Below are positions 7,750 to 51,455 of a stretch of DNA of 64,000 nt, piece after piece. The position numbers and the translations under genes are program-made. The first letter of the stretch is position 1. Every line of letters starts with the position of its first letter. The stretch spans positions 42,236 to 106,235 of the forward strand of contig JBKQKO010000098.1 in assembly GCA_052147455.1 (NCBI GenBank). Direction: 5' to 3'. The DNA is from Desulfobaccales bacterium. Lineage in GTDB: Bacteria > Desulfobacterota > Desulfobaccia > Desulfobaccales > 0-14-0-80-60-11. Under the pieces are notes generated by a model, which saw only the letters and a list, made by a program, of their open reading frames with translations, made no database searches and had not been told where the DNA came from.

Positions 7750-7782
7750 TTGACAAAGGGGAGAGGCAGATAGTAAAAATTG
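7750..7782 (+). promoter_or_regulatory. Candidate sigma70-type promoter upstream of the CDC48-like gene
   Basis: TTGACA at 7750-7755 is followed by an A/T-rich TAGTAAAAAT block 15-19 nt downstream. The spacing is ambiguous. Confidence 0.25.
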
Positions 7783-7897
7783 GTCGGACCATATGATGAT
7801 TAGACGAGCAGACGGCTTTCTCATCTAATCTCGCATTGCCTGGTGGCCCACACAGTATAAAGTCAATTATTCCACACCATTAGGTTAAGAAAGTATT

Positions 7898-10024
7898 GTG
7901 GTTCTGGAATTAAAAGTCAGCGAAGCTTTGACCGATGATGTCGGCAAGGGTTGGGCTCGCCTGAACCCTGAAGATATCCAGGCCCTGGGCGCCGTCCTGG
8001 GAGATCTCATTGAAATCGCCGGCAAAAAAAAGACGGCAGGCCGGGTCACCGGGGCCCTGGGCCAGGACCACGAAAAACAGAACCTCCAAATCGACGGGCT
8101 GATCCGGGCCAATGCCCAGGTCAAAGTGGGCGACACGGTCCGGATCAGGAAGGTTACCCGCCAAACCGCCACCACCATTATCCTCTATTTCTTGGAGCCC
8201 AATTGCCCCCTGCCCCAGGAAGCCGAACTGGAACATTTCGGCAAGGTGCTCCAGGGATACCCGGTGTTTCTAGGCGACCAGATCAACATCCCCCTTTTCG
8301 GCGGCCGGGACCGTTTCTTCCGGGTAGAGGCGACCTCGCCTTCCGGCCCGGTGATCATCAACCCGCAGACCAATTTTGTTCTCCAGAAACCCGATTATCT
8401 GGTGAATAGCGCCGCCCAGGTCTCCTACGAAGACATCGGCGGCCTGGACAAAGAACTCCGGCTGGTGCGGGAGATGGTGGAACTTCCCCTGCGCTATGCC
8501 GAGATTTTTGAAAGACTGGGGATCGAAGTCCCCAAAGGCCTGCTCCTCTATGGCTCTCCCGGAACGGGCAAAACCCTGATTGCCAGGGCCATCGCCAGCG
8601 AGGTCAAACTCCATTTCATCAAGGTCAACGGTCCGGAGATTATCCATAAGTTCTACGGAGAAAGCGAGGCCAAGCTCCGGGAGATCTTTGAGGAGGCCGC
8701 CAGCCAGGCCCCCAGCGTAATTTTTATCGATGAGATCGACGCCATCGCCCCGAAACGGGCTGACGTGCTGGGGGACGTGGAAAAACGGGTGGTGGCCCAA
8801 CTGCTCGCCCTCATGGACGGCATGGTCCCCAGGGGCCACGTGGTGGTGATCGGGGCGACCAACATTCCGGAGAGGATGGATCCGGCCCTGCGGCGGCCCG
8901 GCCGTTTTGACCGGGAAATCACCATCCCGGTGCCCAACGCCGAGGGACGCCGGGCGATCTTGAAGATCCACAGCCGGCGCATGCCGCTGGCCCCGGATGT
9001 CAACCTGGAACGTCTGGCCCAGGTCACCCATGGTTTTGTCGGAGCGGACCTGCAGGCTCTCTGCAAGGAAGCGGGCATGGTGGCGTTCCGCCGATATCTT
9101 CAGGTTCTCGGGGGCGGGAATCCCGAGGCCTTCCTGAATACGTCGGAAAATCTGCAGATCACCTCGGAAGACTTCCTTACGGCCCTGCGGGAAATCGAAC
9201 CCTCGGCCACCCGGGAGTTTTTTACGGAAAGGCCGACGGTCAGATGGGAGGACGTGGGGGGACTGAAGGAGATCAAGGCGGCCCTCATTTCCGTGGTGGA
9301 TTGGCCCCATAGATATCCGGAGCTGTTCGACGCAGCGCGGCTGTCGCCTTCCCGGGGGATTTTGTTTACCGGACCCTCCGGCACCGGCAAGACCCTCATG
9401 GCCAAGGCCCTGGCCAACAAAACCGGTTTGAATTTCATTGCCATCAGCGCTCCCATCCTGTTCTCCAAATGGTTGGGGGAATCGGAAAAGGCCCTGCACG
9501 AAATCTTCAAAAAAGCCAAACAATCCGCGCCGTGTATCCTGTTTTTCGATGAGATCGATGCCCTGGTGGCCCGGCGGGGCGCGAGCAGCGAAGTGGGAGG
9601 GGGCGCCCCGGAGCGGGTGGCCAGCCAGTTCTTCAACGAACTGGATACGCTCAGCGACCTCTCGGAGGTCATCATTTTGGGAGCCACCAACCGCCAGGAC
9701 CTGCTGGACCCGTCTTTGATGCGGGCGGGCCGGCTGGATTTTGTGCTGCCCTTCCCGGTGCCTGACGAGGCCGCCCGGATTGAGATCCTTAAGATACATA
9801 CCAAAGATAGGCCCTTGAGCGCTGAGGTGGACCTGCAGGAACTGGCCGGAGAAACCGCAGGCATGGCCGGTTCAGACCTGGCGTATATCTGCAAGAGAGC
9901 GGCCATCCTGGCAATCGGGGATGTGATCAGTTTGCCGGGAGAGAGCCGGGGTACGGAGCTCTCAATGTCGGTGGGTCATTTTAGGACAGCCATCAGCGAG
10001 GTCCAAAGGACGAGGGAACCATGA
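7898..10024 (+). CDS. CDC48/VCP/p97-type AAA+ ATPase (N domain plus D1 and D2 AAA modules)
   Basis: 708 aa. The N-terminus resembles a CDC48 double-psi-barrel domain (LKVSEALTDDVGKGWARLNPEDIQALG..GDLIEI). Two Walker A motifs (GSPGTGKTL, GPSGTGKTL), two Walker B motifs (IFIDEIDA, LFFDEIDA) and SRH regions. GTG start. Confidence 0.9.
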   Translation: MVLELKVSEALTDDVGKGWARLNPEDIQALGAVLGDLIEIAGKKKTAGRVTGALGQDHEKQNLQIDGLIRANAQVKVGDTVRIRKVTRQTATTIILYFLEPNCPLPQEAELEHFGKVLQGYPVFLGDQINIPLFGGRDRFFRVEATSPSGPVIINPQTNFVLQKPDYLVNSAAQVSYEDIGGLDKELRLVREMVELPLRYAEIFERLGIEVPKGLLLYGSPGTGKTLIARAIASEVKLHFIKVNGPEIIHKFYGESEAKLREIFEEAASQAPSVIFIDEIDAIAPKRADVLGDVEKRVVAQLLALMDGMVPRGHVVVIGATNIPERMDPALRRPGRFDREITIPVPNAEGRRAILKIHSRRMPLAPDVNLERLAQVTHGFVGADLQALCKEAGMVAFRRYLQVLGGGNPEAFLNTSENLQITSEDFLTALREIEPSATREFFTERPTVRWEDVGGLKEIKAALISVVDWPHRYPELFDAARLSPSRGILFTGPSGTGKTLMAKALANKTGLNFIAISAPILFSKWLGESEKALHEIFKKAKQSAPCILFFDEIDALVARRGASSEVGGGAPERVASQFFNELDTLSDLSEVIILGATNRQDLLDPSLMRAGRLDFVLPFPVPDEAARIEILKIHTKDRPLSAEVDLQELAGETAGMAGSDLAYICKRAAILAIGDVISLPGESRGTELSMSVGHFRTAISEVQRTREP

Positions 10025-10025
10025 G

Positions 10026-10793
10026 ATGTTAAAAGCGGTGGAAAAGAAAAGGGCTTATCAGGATGTGGTCAAGCAGATCGTCAATCTCATTCAAAAGGGC
10101 AAGCTGAAGAAGGAAGACCAACTGCCCTCCGAGAGAGAATTGACCGAGACTCTCAAGGTATCCCGCACCACGGTGCGCGAAGCGATGCGTTGCCTGGAAT
10201 CGATGCGGCTGGTGGATAGTCGGCAAGGCAACGGCACGTTCGTACTGGCGTCAGGCCAGGATGTCTCGATCCAGTCTTTGTCCGCGGCCCTGTTTACTGA
10301 GAAGGACGATCTCAAGGATATCTTTTACATCCGCAAGATCATCGAACCCTCCATTGCCCAGCTGGCGGCAGAGTTTGCCAGTCCGGAAGAGCTCAAACAG
10401 TTGGAAGAAATGATCCAGGCCCATGAAGAGAACCTGGCCTCCGGGGCGAACACGGTGGACTTCGATACAGCCTTCCATATGACCCTGGCCCGGTCAGCCA
10501 AGAATCGGGTGATGAGCCGCCTGGTGAATGCCTTGATTGACCTTTTGGCTGAGTCCCGGAAAGAGATTCTCCAGAGTGACCGGCGGGCGGTGGAATCCCT
10601 GCGGGGTCATAAGATAATCCTGGACGCGGTTAAAACGGGTGATGGCGTCAGGGCGCGGGAGGCCATGCGCCGTCATTTGCAGGAGATCGAAAAACTCTTA
10701 TTCAAAGTGAAGAAAGGAGGTGGGAGGTGCAAGGTGCAAGTAGTGGCTCGGGAATACAAGATGGCAGAGTTTTTAAAACATCAGTCTGACTGA
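10026..10793 (+). CDS. GntR-family transcriptional regulator with an FCD (FadR C-terminal) ligand domain
   Basis: Winged-HTH signature LPSERELTETLKVSRTTVREAMRCLESMRLV plus a helical FCD-type C-terminus. The ATG starts 2 nt after the CDC48 stop codon. Confidence 0.9.
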   Translation: MLKAVEKKRAYQDVVKQIVNLIQKGKLKKEDQLPSERELTETLKVSRTTVREAMRCLESMRLVDSRQGNGTFVLASGQDVSIQSLSAALFTEKDDLKDIFYIRKIIEPSIAQLAAEFASPEELKQLEEMIQAHEENLASGANTVDFDTAFHMTLARSAKNRVMSRLVNALIDLLAESRKEILQSDRRAVESLRGHKIILDAVKTGDGVRAREAMRRHLQEIEKLLFKVKKGGGRCKVQVVAREYKMAEFLKHQSD

Positions 10794-10814
10794 TGACACA
10801 ATCAGGAGGGATGT

Positions 10815-11453
10815 ATGGCCAAAATTACTGAAATAACCATTTGGACCCGTGGAGTAACCATGGACAAGGAGGGCCGCGATATTGCGGGCGCCATCGGCAA
10901 AGCGGCCGAAAAGGAAGGCAAGCACGTGATGGCCTTTGATAATTACGAGGACCTCCCGGACCGCGTGTTGGTGACGACTCGCAAGTACGTCAGGATCAGC
11001 GATGAAGAGATCGAGCACAAGTATGTCTACACCAATGACCATCCTGACGTAGTCATTGTCGCGGAGCCGACCATTGTCAAAGGAATCAATGTGTTGCGGG
11101 GGATGCCCGAGGGCGGTCTCCTGCTGATCAATACCGCGCGTGACATTGACTACATGCTCCAGTTCATTCCCAACGCTGAAGTGCTCGGGGCCATCGCCAC
11201 CGTGGACGCGGACGGCATCTCGGGCGTTAAGACCGTGGATTTTTCGGGTACCGAGGGCGGCACTGACGCGGTGGGCATTGGCGCCGGGATCGCCGCGCCG
11301 ATAGTCGGCGCTATGGCCAAGATCAGCGGCCTGATCCAGAAAGAGGACCTGGCCAAGATCGTCAAGGACGTCTCCGGCATGGAAAAGGGTTATGCGGAAG
11401 TGAAGCTGCGGAAGTTTCGCAAGACCCGCGTCGAGTATTCCTGGGGCGGATGA
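10815..11453 (+). CDS. 2-oxoacid:ferredoxin oxidoreductase, gamma subunit
   Basis: Size and sequence fit the POR/VOR gamma family. It is the first gene of a gamma-delta-alpha-beta set. RBS AGGAGG. Confidence 0.75.
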   Translation: MAKITEITIWTRGVTMDKEGRDIAGAIGKAAEKEGKHVMAFDNYEDLPDRVLVTTRKYVRISDEEIEHKYVYTNDHPDVVIVAEPTIVKGINVLRGMPEGGLLLINTARDIDYMLQFIPNAEVLGAIATVDADGISGVKTVDFSGTEGGTDAVGIGAGIAAPIVGAMAKISGLIQKEDLAKIVKDVSGMEKGYAEVKLRKFRKTRVEYSWGG

Positions 11454-11499
11454 AAGACCCAATAATTCGAACTACATATGCAAAAAGGAGCATTGTGCT

Positions 11500-11853
11500 A
11501 TGTCTAAAAAGCTTCCAGAATTCGGAACCATAAACGTTCCCCATGACCGGGAAGTACCCTTCGGGGCGATTACCCCGGCCCCCGTTCGGCAGCAAGATCT
11601 TTTCGTGACCTCCAACTGGCGCATTGTGCGGCCGGTCATTGACCACGAACTATGCACCCGCTGCCTGACCTGCTATATCCACTGTCCGGATGCCTGCTGG
11701 TCTTACAATGAGAAAGAGGACCTGATGGAGTGGAACTGGAAGTTCTGCAAGGGCTGCCAGATCTGCATCCATCAGTGTCCGGTAAATGCCCTGTCACCGG
11801 TGCCGGAGCTTGATTTCCCGGATGGCGTCCACCGTTTGGAAAAACCCTTCTAG
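11500..11853 (+). CDS. 2-oxoacid:ferredoxin oxidoreductase, delta subunit (2x[4Fe-4S] ferredoxin)
   Basis: Two cysteine clusters: CTRCLTCYIHCP and CKGCQICIHQCP. Confidence 0.85.
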   Translation: MSKKLPEFGTINVPHDREVPFGAITPAPVRQQDLFVTSNWRIVRPVIDHELCTRCLTCYIHCPDACWSYNEKEDLMEWNWKFCKGCQICIHQCPVNALSPVPELDFPDGVHRLEKPF

Positions 11854-11868
11854 GGGAGGAGAAAGATT

Positions 11869-14075
<2,207 letters not shown>

Positions 14076-14150
14076 GAGAACCGGCTTATCCAAACAGGTG
14101 CAGGGTCTTCACCGACCCTGCACCGCGATCCCGGCAGGGAGGATCAATTC

Positions 14151-15434
14151 ATGAGTGCCCAGGCTGATTCTGAATCTAAGGAGACTTACAGGTCTTTAAC
14201 CAGCAAACCATGGATCCAGTTGGTGGCTGGGGTAGTTGGCATGATGATGATCTCCAGCCTCCAATATGCGTGGACGCTGTTTGTCCCCTCATTTACGCAA
14301 ACCTTTAAGTGGTCCCTTCCGGCCGTGCAACTGGCCTTTACCCTGTTTATCATTTTTATGACCTATTCGGCGCCGCTCACCGGCTATCTGTTAGACCGGT
14401 TCGGCACCCGCCTCTTCTTCACCCTGGCCGCCTTCTGTGTGGGCATCGGCTGGGGGGCCTTGGGGTTGGCCAAGTCGTTGTCTGCGCTCTATTGCTTCTA
14501 TGGCCTGGCAGGCGTAGGAGCCAGTTTTGTTTATACCGGCGGCATAGCTACCGCCCTCAAATGGTATCCCCAAAAAAGAGGCTTGGCCTCCGGTGTGATG
14601 GCGGCTGGTTTCGGCGCAGGTGCGGCGCCCTTCATCCCTTTGTTCGGGTATCTCTTGGCAAGCTACGGTTATGGGATCACTTTTCTGTGGACGGGAATAG
14701 GTTTCGGCGTCATTCTCCTCGTTGTGGCGCAAGTCCTCCATTTTCCTTCCGAGGCTCTAACCGCCAGCGTATCTGCCTCGCCGTCTGCTGCTCCCAAGGT
14801 ACAAGAGCGCGGTCTCACTCCCATGGAGATGTTGAAGAGCCCCCAATTTTACTTAATATACGTAATCTTTGTAGCCATGGCCTCCGGTTATTTGATGGTA
14901 ACGGCCCAGGCCAAGCCCTTCGCCAAAGATTTGGGCATAGCCGCCAATATTGTTATCCTCGCCGTTACCCTGAACAGCATCGGCAATGGCCTGGGGCGTG
15001 TAGTGTGGGGCTTTCTCTCCGACAAGTTGGGACGTGAGAATGCCATGGTGATTGACTTTCTCATTTGCGCCGTGGCCGTGGCCTTGCTGCCGGTCCTGGG
15101 GCGCAACCCTATCTTCTTTGTGCTGTTGATCGTGGTGGCTATGTTCAGCTTCGGTCCAATTTTTGCCTTTTTCCCGCCCATCACCGCGGACCGCTTCGGC
15201 ACCGCCTATCTGGCGACCAACTATGGCTTCCTTTACAGTGCCAAGGGCCTCGGCGGTATCGTCGGCGGAGTTATCGTTTCTTCCCTCATGATTTGGGTCG
15301 GCTGGACCTTCACCTTTTACGGTGCCGCCGCCCTGGCCGTGCTGGCGGCTTTGGGGGCGCTCATCTTGAAGTATGTCTCCAAGCCGGATTTGGGGAAAGC
15401 TATTGCCCCCGCGGGGAAGCAGTCTTTTTCCTGA
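14151..15434 (+). CDS. MFS transporter of the oxalate/formate antiporter (OFA) family
   Basis: 427 aa, roughly 12 TM helices. OFA-type N-terminus (W.QLVAGVV.MM.ISSLQYAW.LF...), the family that contains OxlT. Confidence 0.8.
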   Translation: MSAQADSESKETYRSLTSKPWIQLVAGVVGMMMISSLQYAWTLFVPSFTQTFKWSLPAVQLAFTLFIIFMTYSAPLTGYLLDRFGTRLFFTLAAFCVGIGWGALGLAKSLSALYCFYGLAGVGASFVYTGGIATALKWYPQKRGLASGVMAAGFGAGAAPFIPLFGYLLASYGYGITFLWTGIGFGVILLVVAQVLHFPSEALTASVSASPSAAPKVQERGLTPMEMLKSPQFYLIYVIFVAMASGYLMVTAQAKPFAKDLGIAANIVILAVTLNSIGNGLGRVVWGFLSDKLGRENAMVIDFLICAVAVALLPVLGRNPIFFVLLIVVAMFSFGPIFAFFPPITADRFGTAYLATNYGFLYSAKGLGGIVGGVIVSSLMIWVGWTFTFYGAAALAVLAALGALILKYVSKPDLGKAIAPAGKQSFS

Positions 15435-51368: not shown

Positions 51369-51455
51369 TGGTGCCGAAGGCGGGATTTGAACCCGCACGG
51401 GTATTCCCCACCACCCCCTCAAGATGGCGTGTCTACCAGGTTCCACCACTTCGGC
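51369..51455 (-). tRNA. tRNA-Leu (anticodon GAG), long variable arm, CCA encoded
   Basis: Hand-folded. Acceptor GCCGAAG/CTTCGGC, anticodon stem CCATC/GGTGG with loop TTGAGGG, T-arm GCGGGTTCAAATCCCGC. 87 nt. Confidence 0.9.

Follow-up and report, generated by a model that had tools for sequence, protein, structure and literature searches.

A Cdc48/VAT-type unfoldase gene accompanies the genes for oxalate oxidoreductase in a probable oxalate-catabolism operon of a Desulfobaccales bacterium

A window of 64,000 nucleotides from the genome of a Desulfobaccales bacterium (assembly GCA_052147455.1, contig JBKQKO010000098.1, positions 42,236 to 106,235) contains, at positions 7898-15434 of its plus strand, seven consecutive open reading frames (ORFs) encoding, in order, a Cdc48/VAT-type AAA+ ATPase, a GntR-family regulator, the gamma, delta, alpha, and beta subunits of a predicted oxalate oxidoreductase (OOR), and a transporter of the major facilitator superfamily (MFS) (Table 1). 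Scans against Pfam and NCBIfam support the domain content of all seven genes. The spacers between them measure 1, 21, 46, 15, 32, and 75 nt, reproducing exactly the tight same-strand packing described in the initial annotation of this DNA; the 32-nt spacer between alpha and beta presumes that beta begins with the ATG at 13092, which is preceded by a GGAGG ribosome-binding site, and not with the TTG at 13068 where the mechanically called ORF starts. A GGAGG-like ribosome-binding site lies ahead of each of the last five gene starts. The GntR start codon is found 1 nt beyond the Cdc48 stop codon (TGAGATG), a junction that suggests translational coupling, by which synthesis of the regulator would depend on translation of the ATPase. 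The arrangement is not a matter of chance, since the same gene order was found again in dozens of other genomes. The seven genes probably constitute a single oxalate-catabolism operon in which the Cdc48-like protein acts as a dedicated partner of OOR. The host is a soil deltaproteobacterium of the order Desulfobaccales, and the window DNA, flanks included, is 95.6% identical to contig L001 of a metagenome-assembled genome (MAG) of the Microflora Danica set ("uncultured delta proteobacterium") and 88-89% identical to MAGs labeled Desulfobaccales, in keeping with the distant diderm lineage suggested earlier.

OOR is a member of the 2-oxoacid:ferredoxin oxidoreductases (OFORs), and several lines of evidence place the enzyme encoded here with OOR. 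The alpha subunit passes the NCBIfam OOR-alpha model NF045791 (566 bits; cutoff, 500), and gamma passes model NF045790 over model positions 12-212 (236 bits; cutoff, 230), with delta matching positions 227-315 of the latter at 109 bits, as expected for a split protein. The best models for pyruvate oxidoreductase (POR), 2-oxoisovalerate oxidoreductase (VOR), and phenylglyoxylate dehydrogenase reach about half of the scores of the OOR models, and those for 2-oxoglutarate oxidoreductase (KOR or OGOR) reach far less. Among solved structures, alpha matches the OOR of Moorella thermoacetica (5C4I_A) at an E value of 5e-146 and without a gap across residues 3-394, and beta matches 5C4I_C at 8e-150; the next-best structure is pyruvate:ferredoxin oxidoreductase (PFOR; 9BT4 for alpha), at 1e-57 for alpha and 2e-74 for beta. 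Because the alpha alignment is free of gaps, residue numbers carry over directly. Alpha has YPIRP at residues 28-32, with Arg31, ADR at residues 107-109, with Arg109, and the switch (plug) loop DPPGDFG at residues 112-118, in which Asp112, Asp116, and Phe117 are all present. A secondary account of the Moorella enzyme (PMC5020499) gives Arg31, Arg109, and Asp116 of alpha as the basis of oxalate binding and of the "bait and switch" loop. Other OFORs have YPITP where OOR has YPIRP. The (Y/F)PIRP motif, Arg109, and DPPGDFG were kept in all 54 of the aligned alpha orthologs. The beta translation shows the thiamine pyrophosphate (TPP) motif GDGG...NESYAN and the cluster ligands CxxC...C...C, which together with the two CxxCxxCxxxCP motifs of delta make three [4Fe-4S] sites. 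Identity as POR, VOR, KOR, or indolepyruvate oxidoreductase (IOR) was rejected on model scores (PorA, 294 against a cutoff of 550; VorB, 84; KOR/OGOR alpha, 58-78) and is also disfavored by the replacement of the Thr of YPITP with Arg in alpha. Judged by homology, the oxidoreductase is an OOR ortholog, a split-subunit version of the Moorella enzyme with its oxalate-specific active-site residues. By the example of that enzyme, it would oxidize oxalate to two CO2 without coenzyme A (CoA), and the two low-potential electrons would pass through the three [4Fe-4S] clusters to ferredoxin.

The transporter scores above the cutoff of TIGR04259, the model for oxalate/formate antiporters (369 bits; cutoff, 335), and matches OxlT of Oxalobacter formigenes (8HPJ) over its whole length at an E value of 6e-73. 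The structural study of OxlT (PDB 8HPJ/8HPK) names Gln34, Tyr35, Tyr124, Arg272, and Lys355 as the first-shell oxalate ligands. Equivalents of all five are kept here, including the essential basic residues Arg272 and Lys355, and Thr38 and Asn268 are conserved as well; the differences from OxlT are the exchange of second-shell aromatic residues for other aromatics (Y150F, W324F, Y328F, and W352Y) and the replacement of Gln63 and Gln66 by Ile and Met. Assignment of the transporter as an oxalate carrier is thereby well supported by homology, and there is strong support, through likeness to a characterized enzyme and a characterized transporter, for uptake of oxalate followed by its CoA-independent oxidation with reduction of ferredoxin. 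The initial annotation had proposed an OFA-family transporter and an OFOR that might be OOR, forming a cassette for anaerobic oxalate breakdown; all three proposals are supported, and neither the model and structure matches nor the pocket residues place the subunits within POR, VOR, or KOR.

In Moorella thermoacetica, OOR's alpha and beta subunits are encoded by Moth_1592 and Moth_1591 (PMC12873857), and structures are available under PDB 5C4I/5EXD/5EXE. The subunits encoded in the window are 56% (alpha, full length) and about 70% (beta, by tblastn) identical to those of Moorella OOR, and the two enzymes have in common Arg31 of YPIRP, Arg109, the DPPGDF loop, the TPP motif, and the three [4Fe-4S] sites. 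One Moorella chromosome, which encodes an alpha with 97% identity to the crystallized protein, carries, in order, genes for a GntR/FCD regulator, a Cdc48 protein (733 aa), a fused gamma/delta subunit (315 aa), alpha, beta, and a lactate-permease-family protein (PF02652), so that there, too, a GntR/FCD regulator and a Cdc48-type ATPase stand immediately upstream of the OOR genes. The initial annotation had placed a GntR regulator, a Cdc48-type ATPase, and an MFS transporter beside Moorella OOR; the first two are borne out by the genome, whereas the transporter is of the lactate permease family. Other differences are that the single Moorella "delta" gene corresponds to separate gamma and delta genes here, giving four subunits; that the order here is Cdc48-GntR, with the two genes translationally juxtaposed, in contrast to GntR-Cdc48 in Moorella; that the transporter here is an OFA-type MFS protein; and that Moorella is a thermophilic Firmicute, whereas the host here is a diderm member of the Desulfobaccales whose OOR is predicted from sequence. 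The enzyme and the transporter are ordinary, and the operon is the OOR cluster known from Moorella, for which models already exist in NCBIfam. What is noteworthy, as far as gene context can tell, is that a Cdc48/VAT-type unfoldase is robustly coupled to OOR across phyla, a link for which there is no functional explanation.

The ATPase contains the Pfam domains CDC48_N and CDC48_2 together with two AAA and two AAA_lid_3 domains. Its best PDB match is the archaeal unfoldase VAT (5G4F; E value, 1.7e-227), with p97 at about 1e-171. Like VAT, archaeal Cdc48, and p97, which are described by TIGR01243, it has an N domain composed of a double-psi barrel and a beta-clam followed by D1 and D2 rings with lids. 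D1 and D2 each retain intact Walker A and B motifs and arginine fingers, and both rings have aromatic pore loops (KFYG or KYYG in D1 and KWLG or KWVG in D2), all of these features being conserved across the orthologs; the D1 loop of the ATPase in the window, KFYG, is VAT-like rather than p97-like. From the intact motifs and pore loops, the protein is expected to be an active hexameric, ATP-driven unfoldase. It differs from VAT and p97 in being bacterial, in being encoded within a catabolic operon, and in belonging to a subgroup that travels with OOR genes. The ATPase ends in ...QRTREP, and the hydrophobic-Tyr-X proteasome-docking tail was not found in it or among the variable C termini of 54 orthologs; coupling to a proteasome was rejected on this ground. 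No peptidase gene was conserved in the clusters examined. Conservation was also compared domain by domain, and the N domain was merely the most divergent, with no hint of a client-binding surface.

The association between the ATPase and OOR was followed in a scan for OOR-alpha relatives with one genome per species (GTDB), which confirmed at least 462 relatives, some of which could be other OFORs. The census of loci (numbered with the prefix L) covered the best 80 of these relatives, with 64-96% identity in alpha, and 10-kb flanks on each side; most of these 80 are from anaerobes living in soil, peat, sediment, or groundwater. Among the 61 OOR loci that have at least 3 kb upstream of gamma, which represent about eight phylum-level groups, 56 carry a same-strand Cdc48 gene upstream. 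The lineages include Desulfobaccales, Syntrophobacter, Syntrophales, Desulfomonilaceae, Nitrospirota, Thermoanaerobaculia, NC10, Betaproteobacteria, Anaeromyxobacteraceae (Myxococcota), and Deferrimicrobiaceae, to which Moorella and Clostridium can be added from outside the census. L034 has Cdc48 fragments at its OOR locus, and in two Betaproteobacteria the Cdc48 gene lies about 6 kb downstream, behind a second OFOR and a GltD-like gene. GntR is found upstream in 61 of 69 loci, and an OFA-like MFS gene follows beta in just 33 of 63. Pairwise identities of Cdc48 and alpha are correlated (r = 0.89 over 54 loci), which fits co-inheritance and in part reflects shared species history. The census therefore agrees with the earlier proposals that synteny between Cdc48 and OOR would recur across genomes and that the ATPase is a conserved, functionally unexplained component of the OOR neighborhood, as the Moorella and Clostridium loci also indicate. 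A literature search whose reach did not extend to the primary OOR papers found no discussion of the association; the 2010 OOR paper of Pierce reportedly listed the neighboring genes.

The association was also approached from the side of the ATPase. An exhaustive search of representatives at 50% identity returned 17,168 Cdc48-like proteins at E < 1e-30, and a neighbor-joining tree was built from 52 OOR-linked sequences and 98 full-length representatives. Every OOR-linked Cdc48 falls within one clade of 61 tips in this tree, which is drawn without support values at about 45-50% identity and with deep divergences, so that a dedicated subfamily of OOR-linked Cdc48 proteins is likely rather than proven. 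Ten representatives of unknown context were looked up in their genomes: five of the seven within the clade adjoin OFOR genes (L087 and L089-L092), and none of the three outside the clade do so. The alpha subunits of L089-L092 are about 57% identical to that of the window and keep YPIRP and DPPGDFG; at L087, the gamma gene alone is identifiable before the contig ends. A profile made from eight divergent Cdc48 representatives returned only generic archaeal Cdc48 and was uninformative. Two in-clade Cdc48 genes are close to genes for other TPP enzymes, namely, a 1-deoxy-D-xylulose 5-phosphate (DXP) synthase directly upstream of Cdc48 and OOR (L089:867-2741) and a convergent transketolase beside a Cdc48 gene with no OFOR in view (L088:2465-4495), which may be coincidence.

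Several clusters depart from the common plan in their enzyme genes. At L090:4297-9166, a GltD-like subunit (Fer4_20 plus Pyr_redox_2, about 615-650 aa) takes the place of the ferredoxin-like delta, and at L064:12217-19883 a GltD-like subunit is encoded after a second OFOR, whose alpha and beta are fused, and ahead of Cdc48; L068 has the second OFOR and the downstream Cdc48 as in L064, as judged by BLAST alone. Such OOR-type clusters with GltD-like subunits may encode NAD(P)-linked variants of the enzyme. The Firmicute-type OOR cluster at L091:5395-7070 is followed by GntR and an amidase of the FmdA/AmdA family, which might feed in oxalate from oxamate or a related amide. Clostridium CP020473.1 has two OOR clusters (L083 and L084) with identical alphas, both accompanied by GntR and an MFS gene.

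A number of observations weigh against the reading of the locus as an oxalate operon with a dedicated ATPase partner. The beta subunit scores 561 bits against NF045792, narrowly below the cutoff of 590, and the ATPase scores 795.4 bits against TIGR01243, narrowly below the cutoff of 802.65. Formate is not supported as the exchange partner of the transporter, since OOR yields CO2 and not formate. Cdc48 is not in view at L065 and L073 and is probably absent from L070, where 2.8 kb of upstream sequence is available, and of the two Clostridium clusters one has Cdc48 and the second, L083, does not. Loci of this kind imply that the ATPase can act in trans or be dispensable and that it is not needed in cis; Clostridium CP020473.1 is a natural system for testing its action in trans. 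Within the clade of OOR-linked Cdc48 proteins, a basal pair (P0259 and P0287) is not adjacent to OFOR genes.

Given the gene linkage, the ATPase most likely remodels or matures OOR. The Cdc48-like protein would thread or remodel an OOR subunit, either for assembly or cofactor loading of this TPP/Fe-S enzyme or for the reactivation or removal of OOR that is damaged or inhibited, in a manner comparable to that of Rubisco activase. Rubisco activase and CbbX are enzyme-dedicated AAA+ remodelers; like the ATPase described here, they are AAA+ hexamers encoded beside, and co-inherited with, one metabolic enzyme. The analogy is one of mechanism, there being no homology to the Cdc48-like ATPase beyond the AAA+ fold class. 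Isolated Moorella OOR turns over slowly, and a helper could explain the slow turnover. More tentatively, and with somewhat less than even confidence, we propose that the OOR-linked Cdc48-like proteins form a distinct bacterial subfamily whose sole client is OOR, acting as an ATP-driven "OOR activase/maturase" that would thread part of a subunit to load or reset the TPP/Fe-S site or to rescue the inhibited enzyme.

The ATPase might instead be a quality-control or turnover factor that extracts oxidatively damaged or surplus OOR for a separately encoded protease and does not activate it. Such a role would suit an unfoldase that resembles VAT and whose two rings both have aromatic pore loops, as expected for full substrate threading, and an oxygen-sensitive TPP/Fe-S enzyme, many of whose host MAGs come from soils or peat with fluctuating oxygen. 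Against it, the ATPases have no conserved tail for docking on a proteasome-type peptidase, and no peptidase gene is conserved in the clusters. A full-length Lon protease gene is present in the window at 400-2811 on the minus strand, with no evidence of linkage; it lies about 5 kb upstream of the cassette, and Lon is a self-contained protease. We regard turnover as an unlikely, though the best surviving, alternative to remodeling or maturation of the enzyme.

Still less probable is a function directed at the regulator, in which the target of the ATPase would be the GntR repressor or a regulator complex, remodeled or stripped off as part of an induction circuit. The two reading frames are 1 nt apart in the window, they overlap or abut in most diderm loci, and GntR accompanies Cdc48 in the great majority of loci, as counted above. 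At L050:6051-8918, from a Microflora Danica MAG, Cdc48 and GntR are read as a single ORF of 955 aa; together with the 1-nt junction, this long ORF could indicate that the ATPase serves regulation and not the enzyme, but it is known from one MAG and may be a genuine fusion or the product of an indel in the assembly. Against such a role, GntR comes first, and the two genes have separate spacers, in Moorella, Clostridium, L066, L071, L075, L090, and L092; GntR lies downstream of beta in L091; and L060, L078, L087, and L089 have no adjacent GntR, with Cdc48 still abutting gamma. Cdc48 stands directly before the enzyme genes, with GntR moved or absent, in L060, L066, L071, L075, L078, L081, L084, and L089-L092. 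However GntR is rearranged, Cdc48 remains adjacent to the enzyme genes, which makes a regulator-directed role less likely, and we know of no precedent for a FadR-type regulator that requires an unfoldase.

With regard to the substrate, the OFOR could act mainly on another small 2-oxoacid, such as glyoxylate, pyruvate, or one derived from oxamate, in which case the cassette would not be primarily for oxalate. Enzyme assays exist for Moorella OOR only, the beta subunit falls short of its equivalog cutoff, as noted above, and some related clusters carry other transporters (lactate permease or TctABC) or an amidase. Yet every residue reported as specific to oxalate binding and to the bait-and-switch loop is retained, the best POR and VOR models score about half as high as the OOR models, and the neighboring transporter retains the oxalate ligands of OxlT, which makes a different principal substrate very improbable. 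Least credible of all is the notion that the Cdc48-like gene is a general proteostasis gene present by chance or hitchhiking on horizontal transfer: the cassette has moved between phyla (alpha identities of 65-96% cut across taxonomy) and the ATPase has no unusual domains, but the linkage outlasts rearrangement of regulator and transporter, fusion and splitting of subunits, and replacement of delta by a GltD-like subunit, and the nearest nonlinked Cdc48 lineages are distinct in the tree.

Control of the operon can be sketched from its upstream region. The regulator has the GntR helix-turn-helix (PF00392; E value, 4e-20) and the FCD domain (PF07729; E value, 7.5e-28) that are found in FadR-subfamily regulators such as PdhR, LldR, and GlcC. 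Its best NCBIfam likenesses, NanR, LldR, PdhR, and GlcC, are all below cutoff; it differs from the named members of the subfamily in being orthologous to none of them, and its effector is presumed to be oxalate. Six aligned Desulfobaccales upstream regions have two invariant blocks, TCTTGACAAA and AAATTGGTnnGACCATATGATG, and an A/T-rich, -10-like stretch follows about 17-19 nt past the TTGACA box. The palindrome TGGTCGGACCA, which is invariant among these close relatives and lies 117 nt upstream of the Cdc48 start, is the sole TGGTnnnACCA in the 64-kb window, a single occurrence that is not significant by itself; 23 of 63 loci, belonging to several phyla, likewise have TGGTnnnACCA upstream of the first gene of their cluster. 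A palindrome of the shape TGGTnnnACCA is typical of FadR-subfamily operators. We infer that the two blocks are a -35 box and an operator of the FadR type that overlaps the -10/+1 region, where repressors classically bind. Transcription would start at the conserved TTGACA promoter, and the GntR protein would repress it by binding TGGTCGGACCA until released by oxalate or a related acid. A generic scan for promoters and terminators gave no signal above shuffled background within the cluster and did not call the TTGACA box at 7750. The region past the transporter stop codon folds no better than its shuffles (z = -0.71), and no terminator is claimed there.

A stem-loop begins 21 nt past the beta stop codon, and its stem, TGCAGGG...CCCTGCA, occurs once in the window. 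The same stem, with variable loops, is found 18-38 nt after the beta stop codon in 8 of 72 loci, belonging to Desulfobaccales, Syntrophobacter, and one member of the Thermodesulfovibrionales. The element may be a partial terminator or may stabilize the mRNA, and the balance between enzyme and transporter expression may depend on it.

Table 1. Genes and candidate regulatory elements of the predicted oxalate-catabolism operon (positions refer to the window)
Feature	Positions	Strand	Basis
Cdc48/VAT-type double-ring AAA+ ATPase, 708 aa, GTG start	7898..10024	+	Pfam, TIGR01243, PDB 5G4F
GntR-family regulator with FCD effector domain, 255 aa	10026..10793	+	Pfam GntR and FCD
OOR gamma (OFOR domain III), counterpart of Moorella "delta" residues 12-212	10815..11453	+	NF045790, Pfam POR domain
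OOR delta (ferredoxin-like domain V, two [4Fe-4S] clusters), counterpart of Moorella "delta" residues 227-315	11500..11853	+	NF045790, Cys motifs
OOR alpha, 396 aa	11869..13059	+	NF045791, 5C4I_A, active-site residues
OOR beta, 327 aa, binds TPP and proximal cluster	13092..14075	+	5C4I_C, NF045792, motifs
OFA-family MFS transporter, probable oxalate carrier, 427 aa	14151..15434	+	TIGR04259, OxlT 8HPJ
TTGACA, candidate -35 box	7750..7755	+	Invariant block in six Desulfobaccales upstream regions
TGGTCGGACCA palindrome, candidate FadR-type GntR operator	7781..7791		Conservation, unique in window
Perfect 11-bp stem-loop GGTGCAGGGTC-ttcacc-GACCCTGCACC	14097..14124	+	Between beta and transporter genes

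The genes on both sides are functionally unrelated to the cassette. Upstream lies a gamma-glutamyltranspeptidase gene, followed by a spacer of 430 nt before the Cdc48 gene, and on the downstream side the convergent genes encode a short-chain dehydrogenase, a YdjC-like protein, and a radical-SAM protein. Farther along the window, positions 28000-50400 are low in GC (42-52%, compared with about 60% elsewhere) and encode two family 2 glycosyltransferases, a GT87 protein, an RGP-like protein, an NAD-dependent epimerase, a radical-SAM protein, a DUF362 protein, and several ORFs with no Pfam match; a tRNA-Leu(gag) gene is found beside this stretch, at 51369-51455. The stretch looks like a horizontally acquired surface-polysaccharide island.

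OOR has been characterized in Moorella only. Since at least 462 relatives were confirmed and the best 80 belong mostly to soil, peat, sediment, and groundwater anaerobes, CoA-independent anaerobic oxidation of oxalate may be a widespread route for carbon and electrons in such habitats. The near-universal presence of Cdc48 beside OOR provides a testable handle on the function of bacterial Cdc48/VAT homologs, and the pairing also bears on whether a complex TPP/Fe-S enzyme needs an ATP-driven helper. Heterologous expression of OOR, for example, for CO2/oxalate electroenzymology, should probably include coexpression of Cdc48. If the proposed activase/maturase role is true, it would be the first physiological function assigned to a bacterial Cdc48/VAT homolog outside proteasome-type degradation, and a 2-oxoacid:ferredoxin oxidoreductase would for the first time have an unfoldase dedicated to it.

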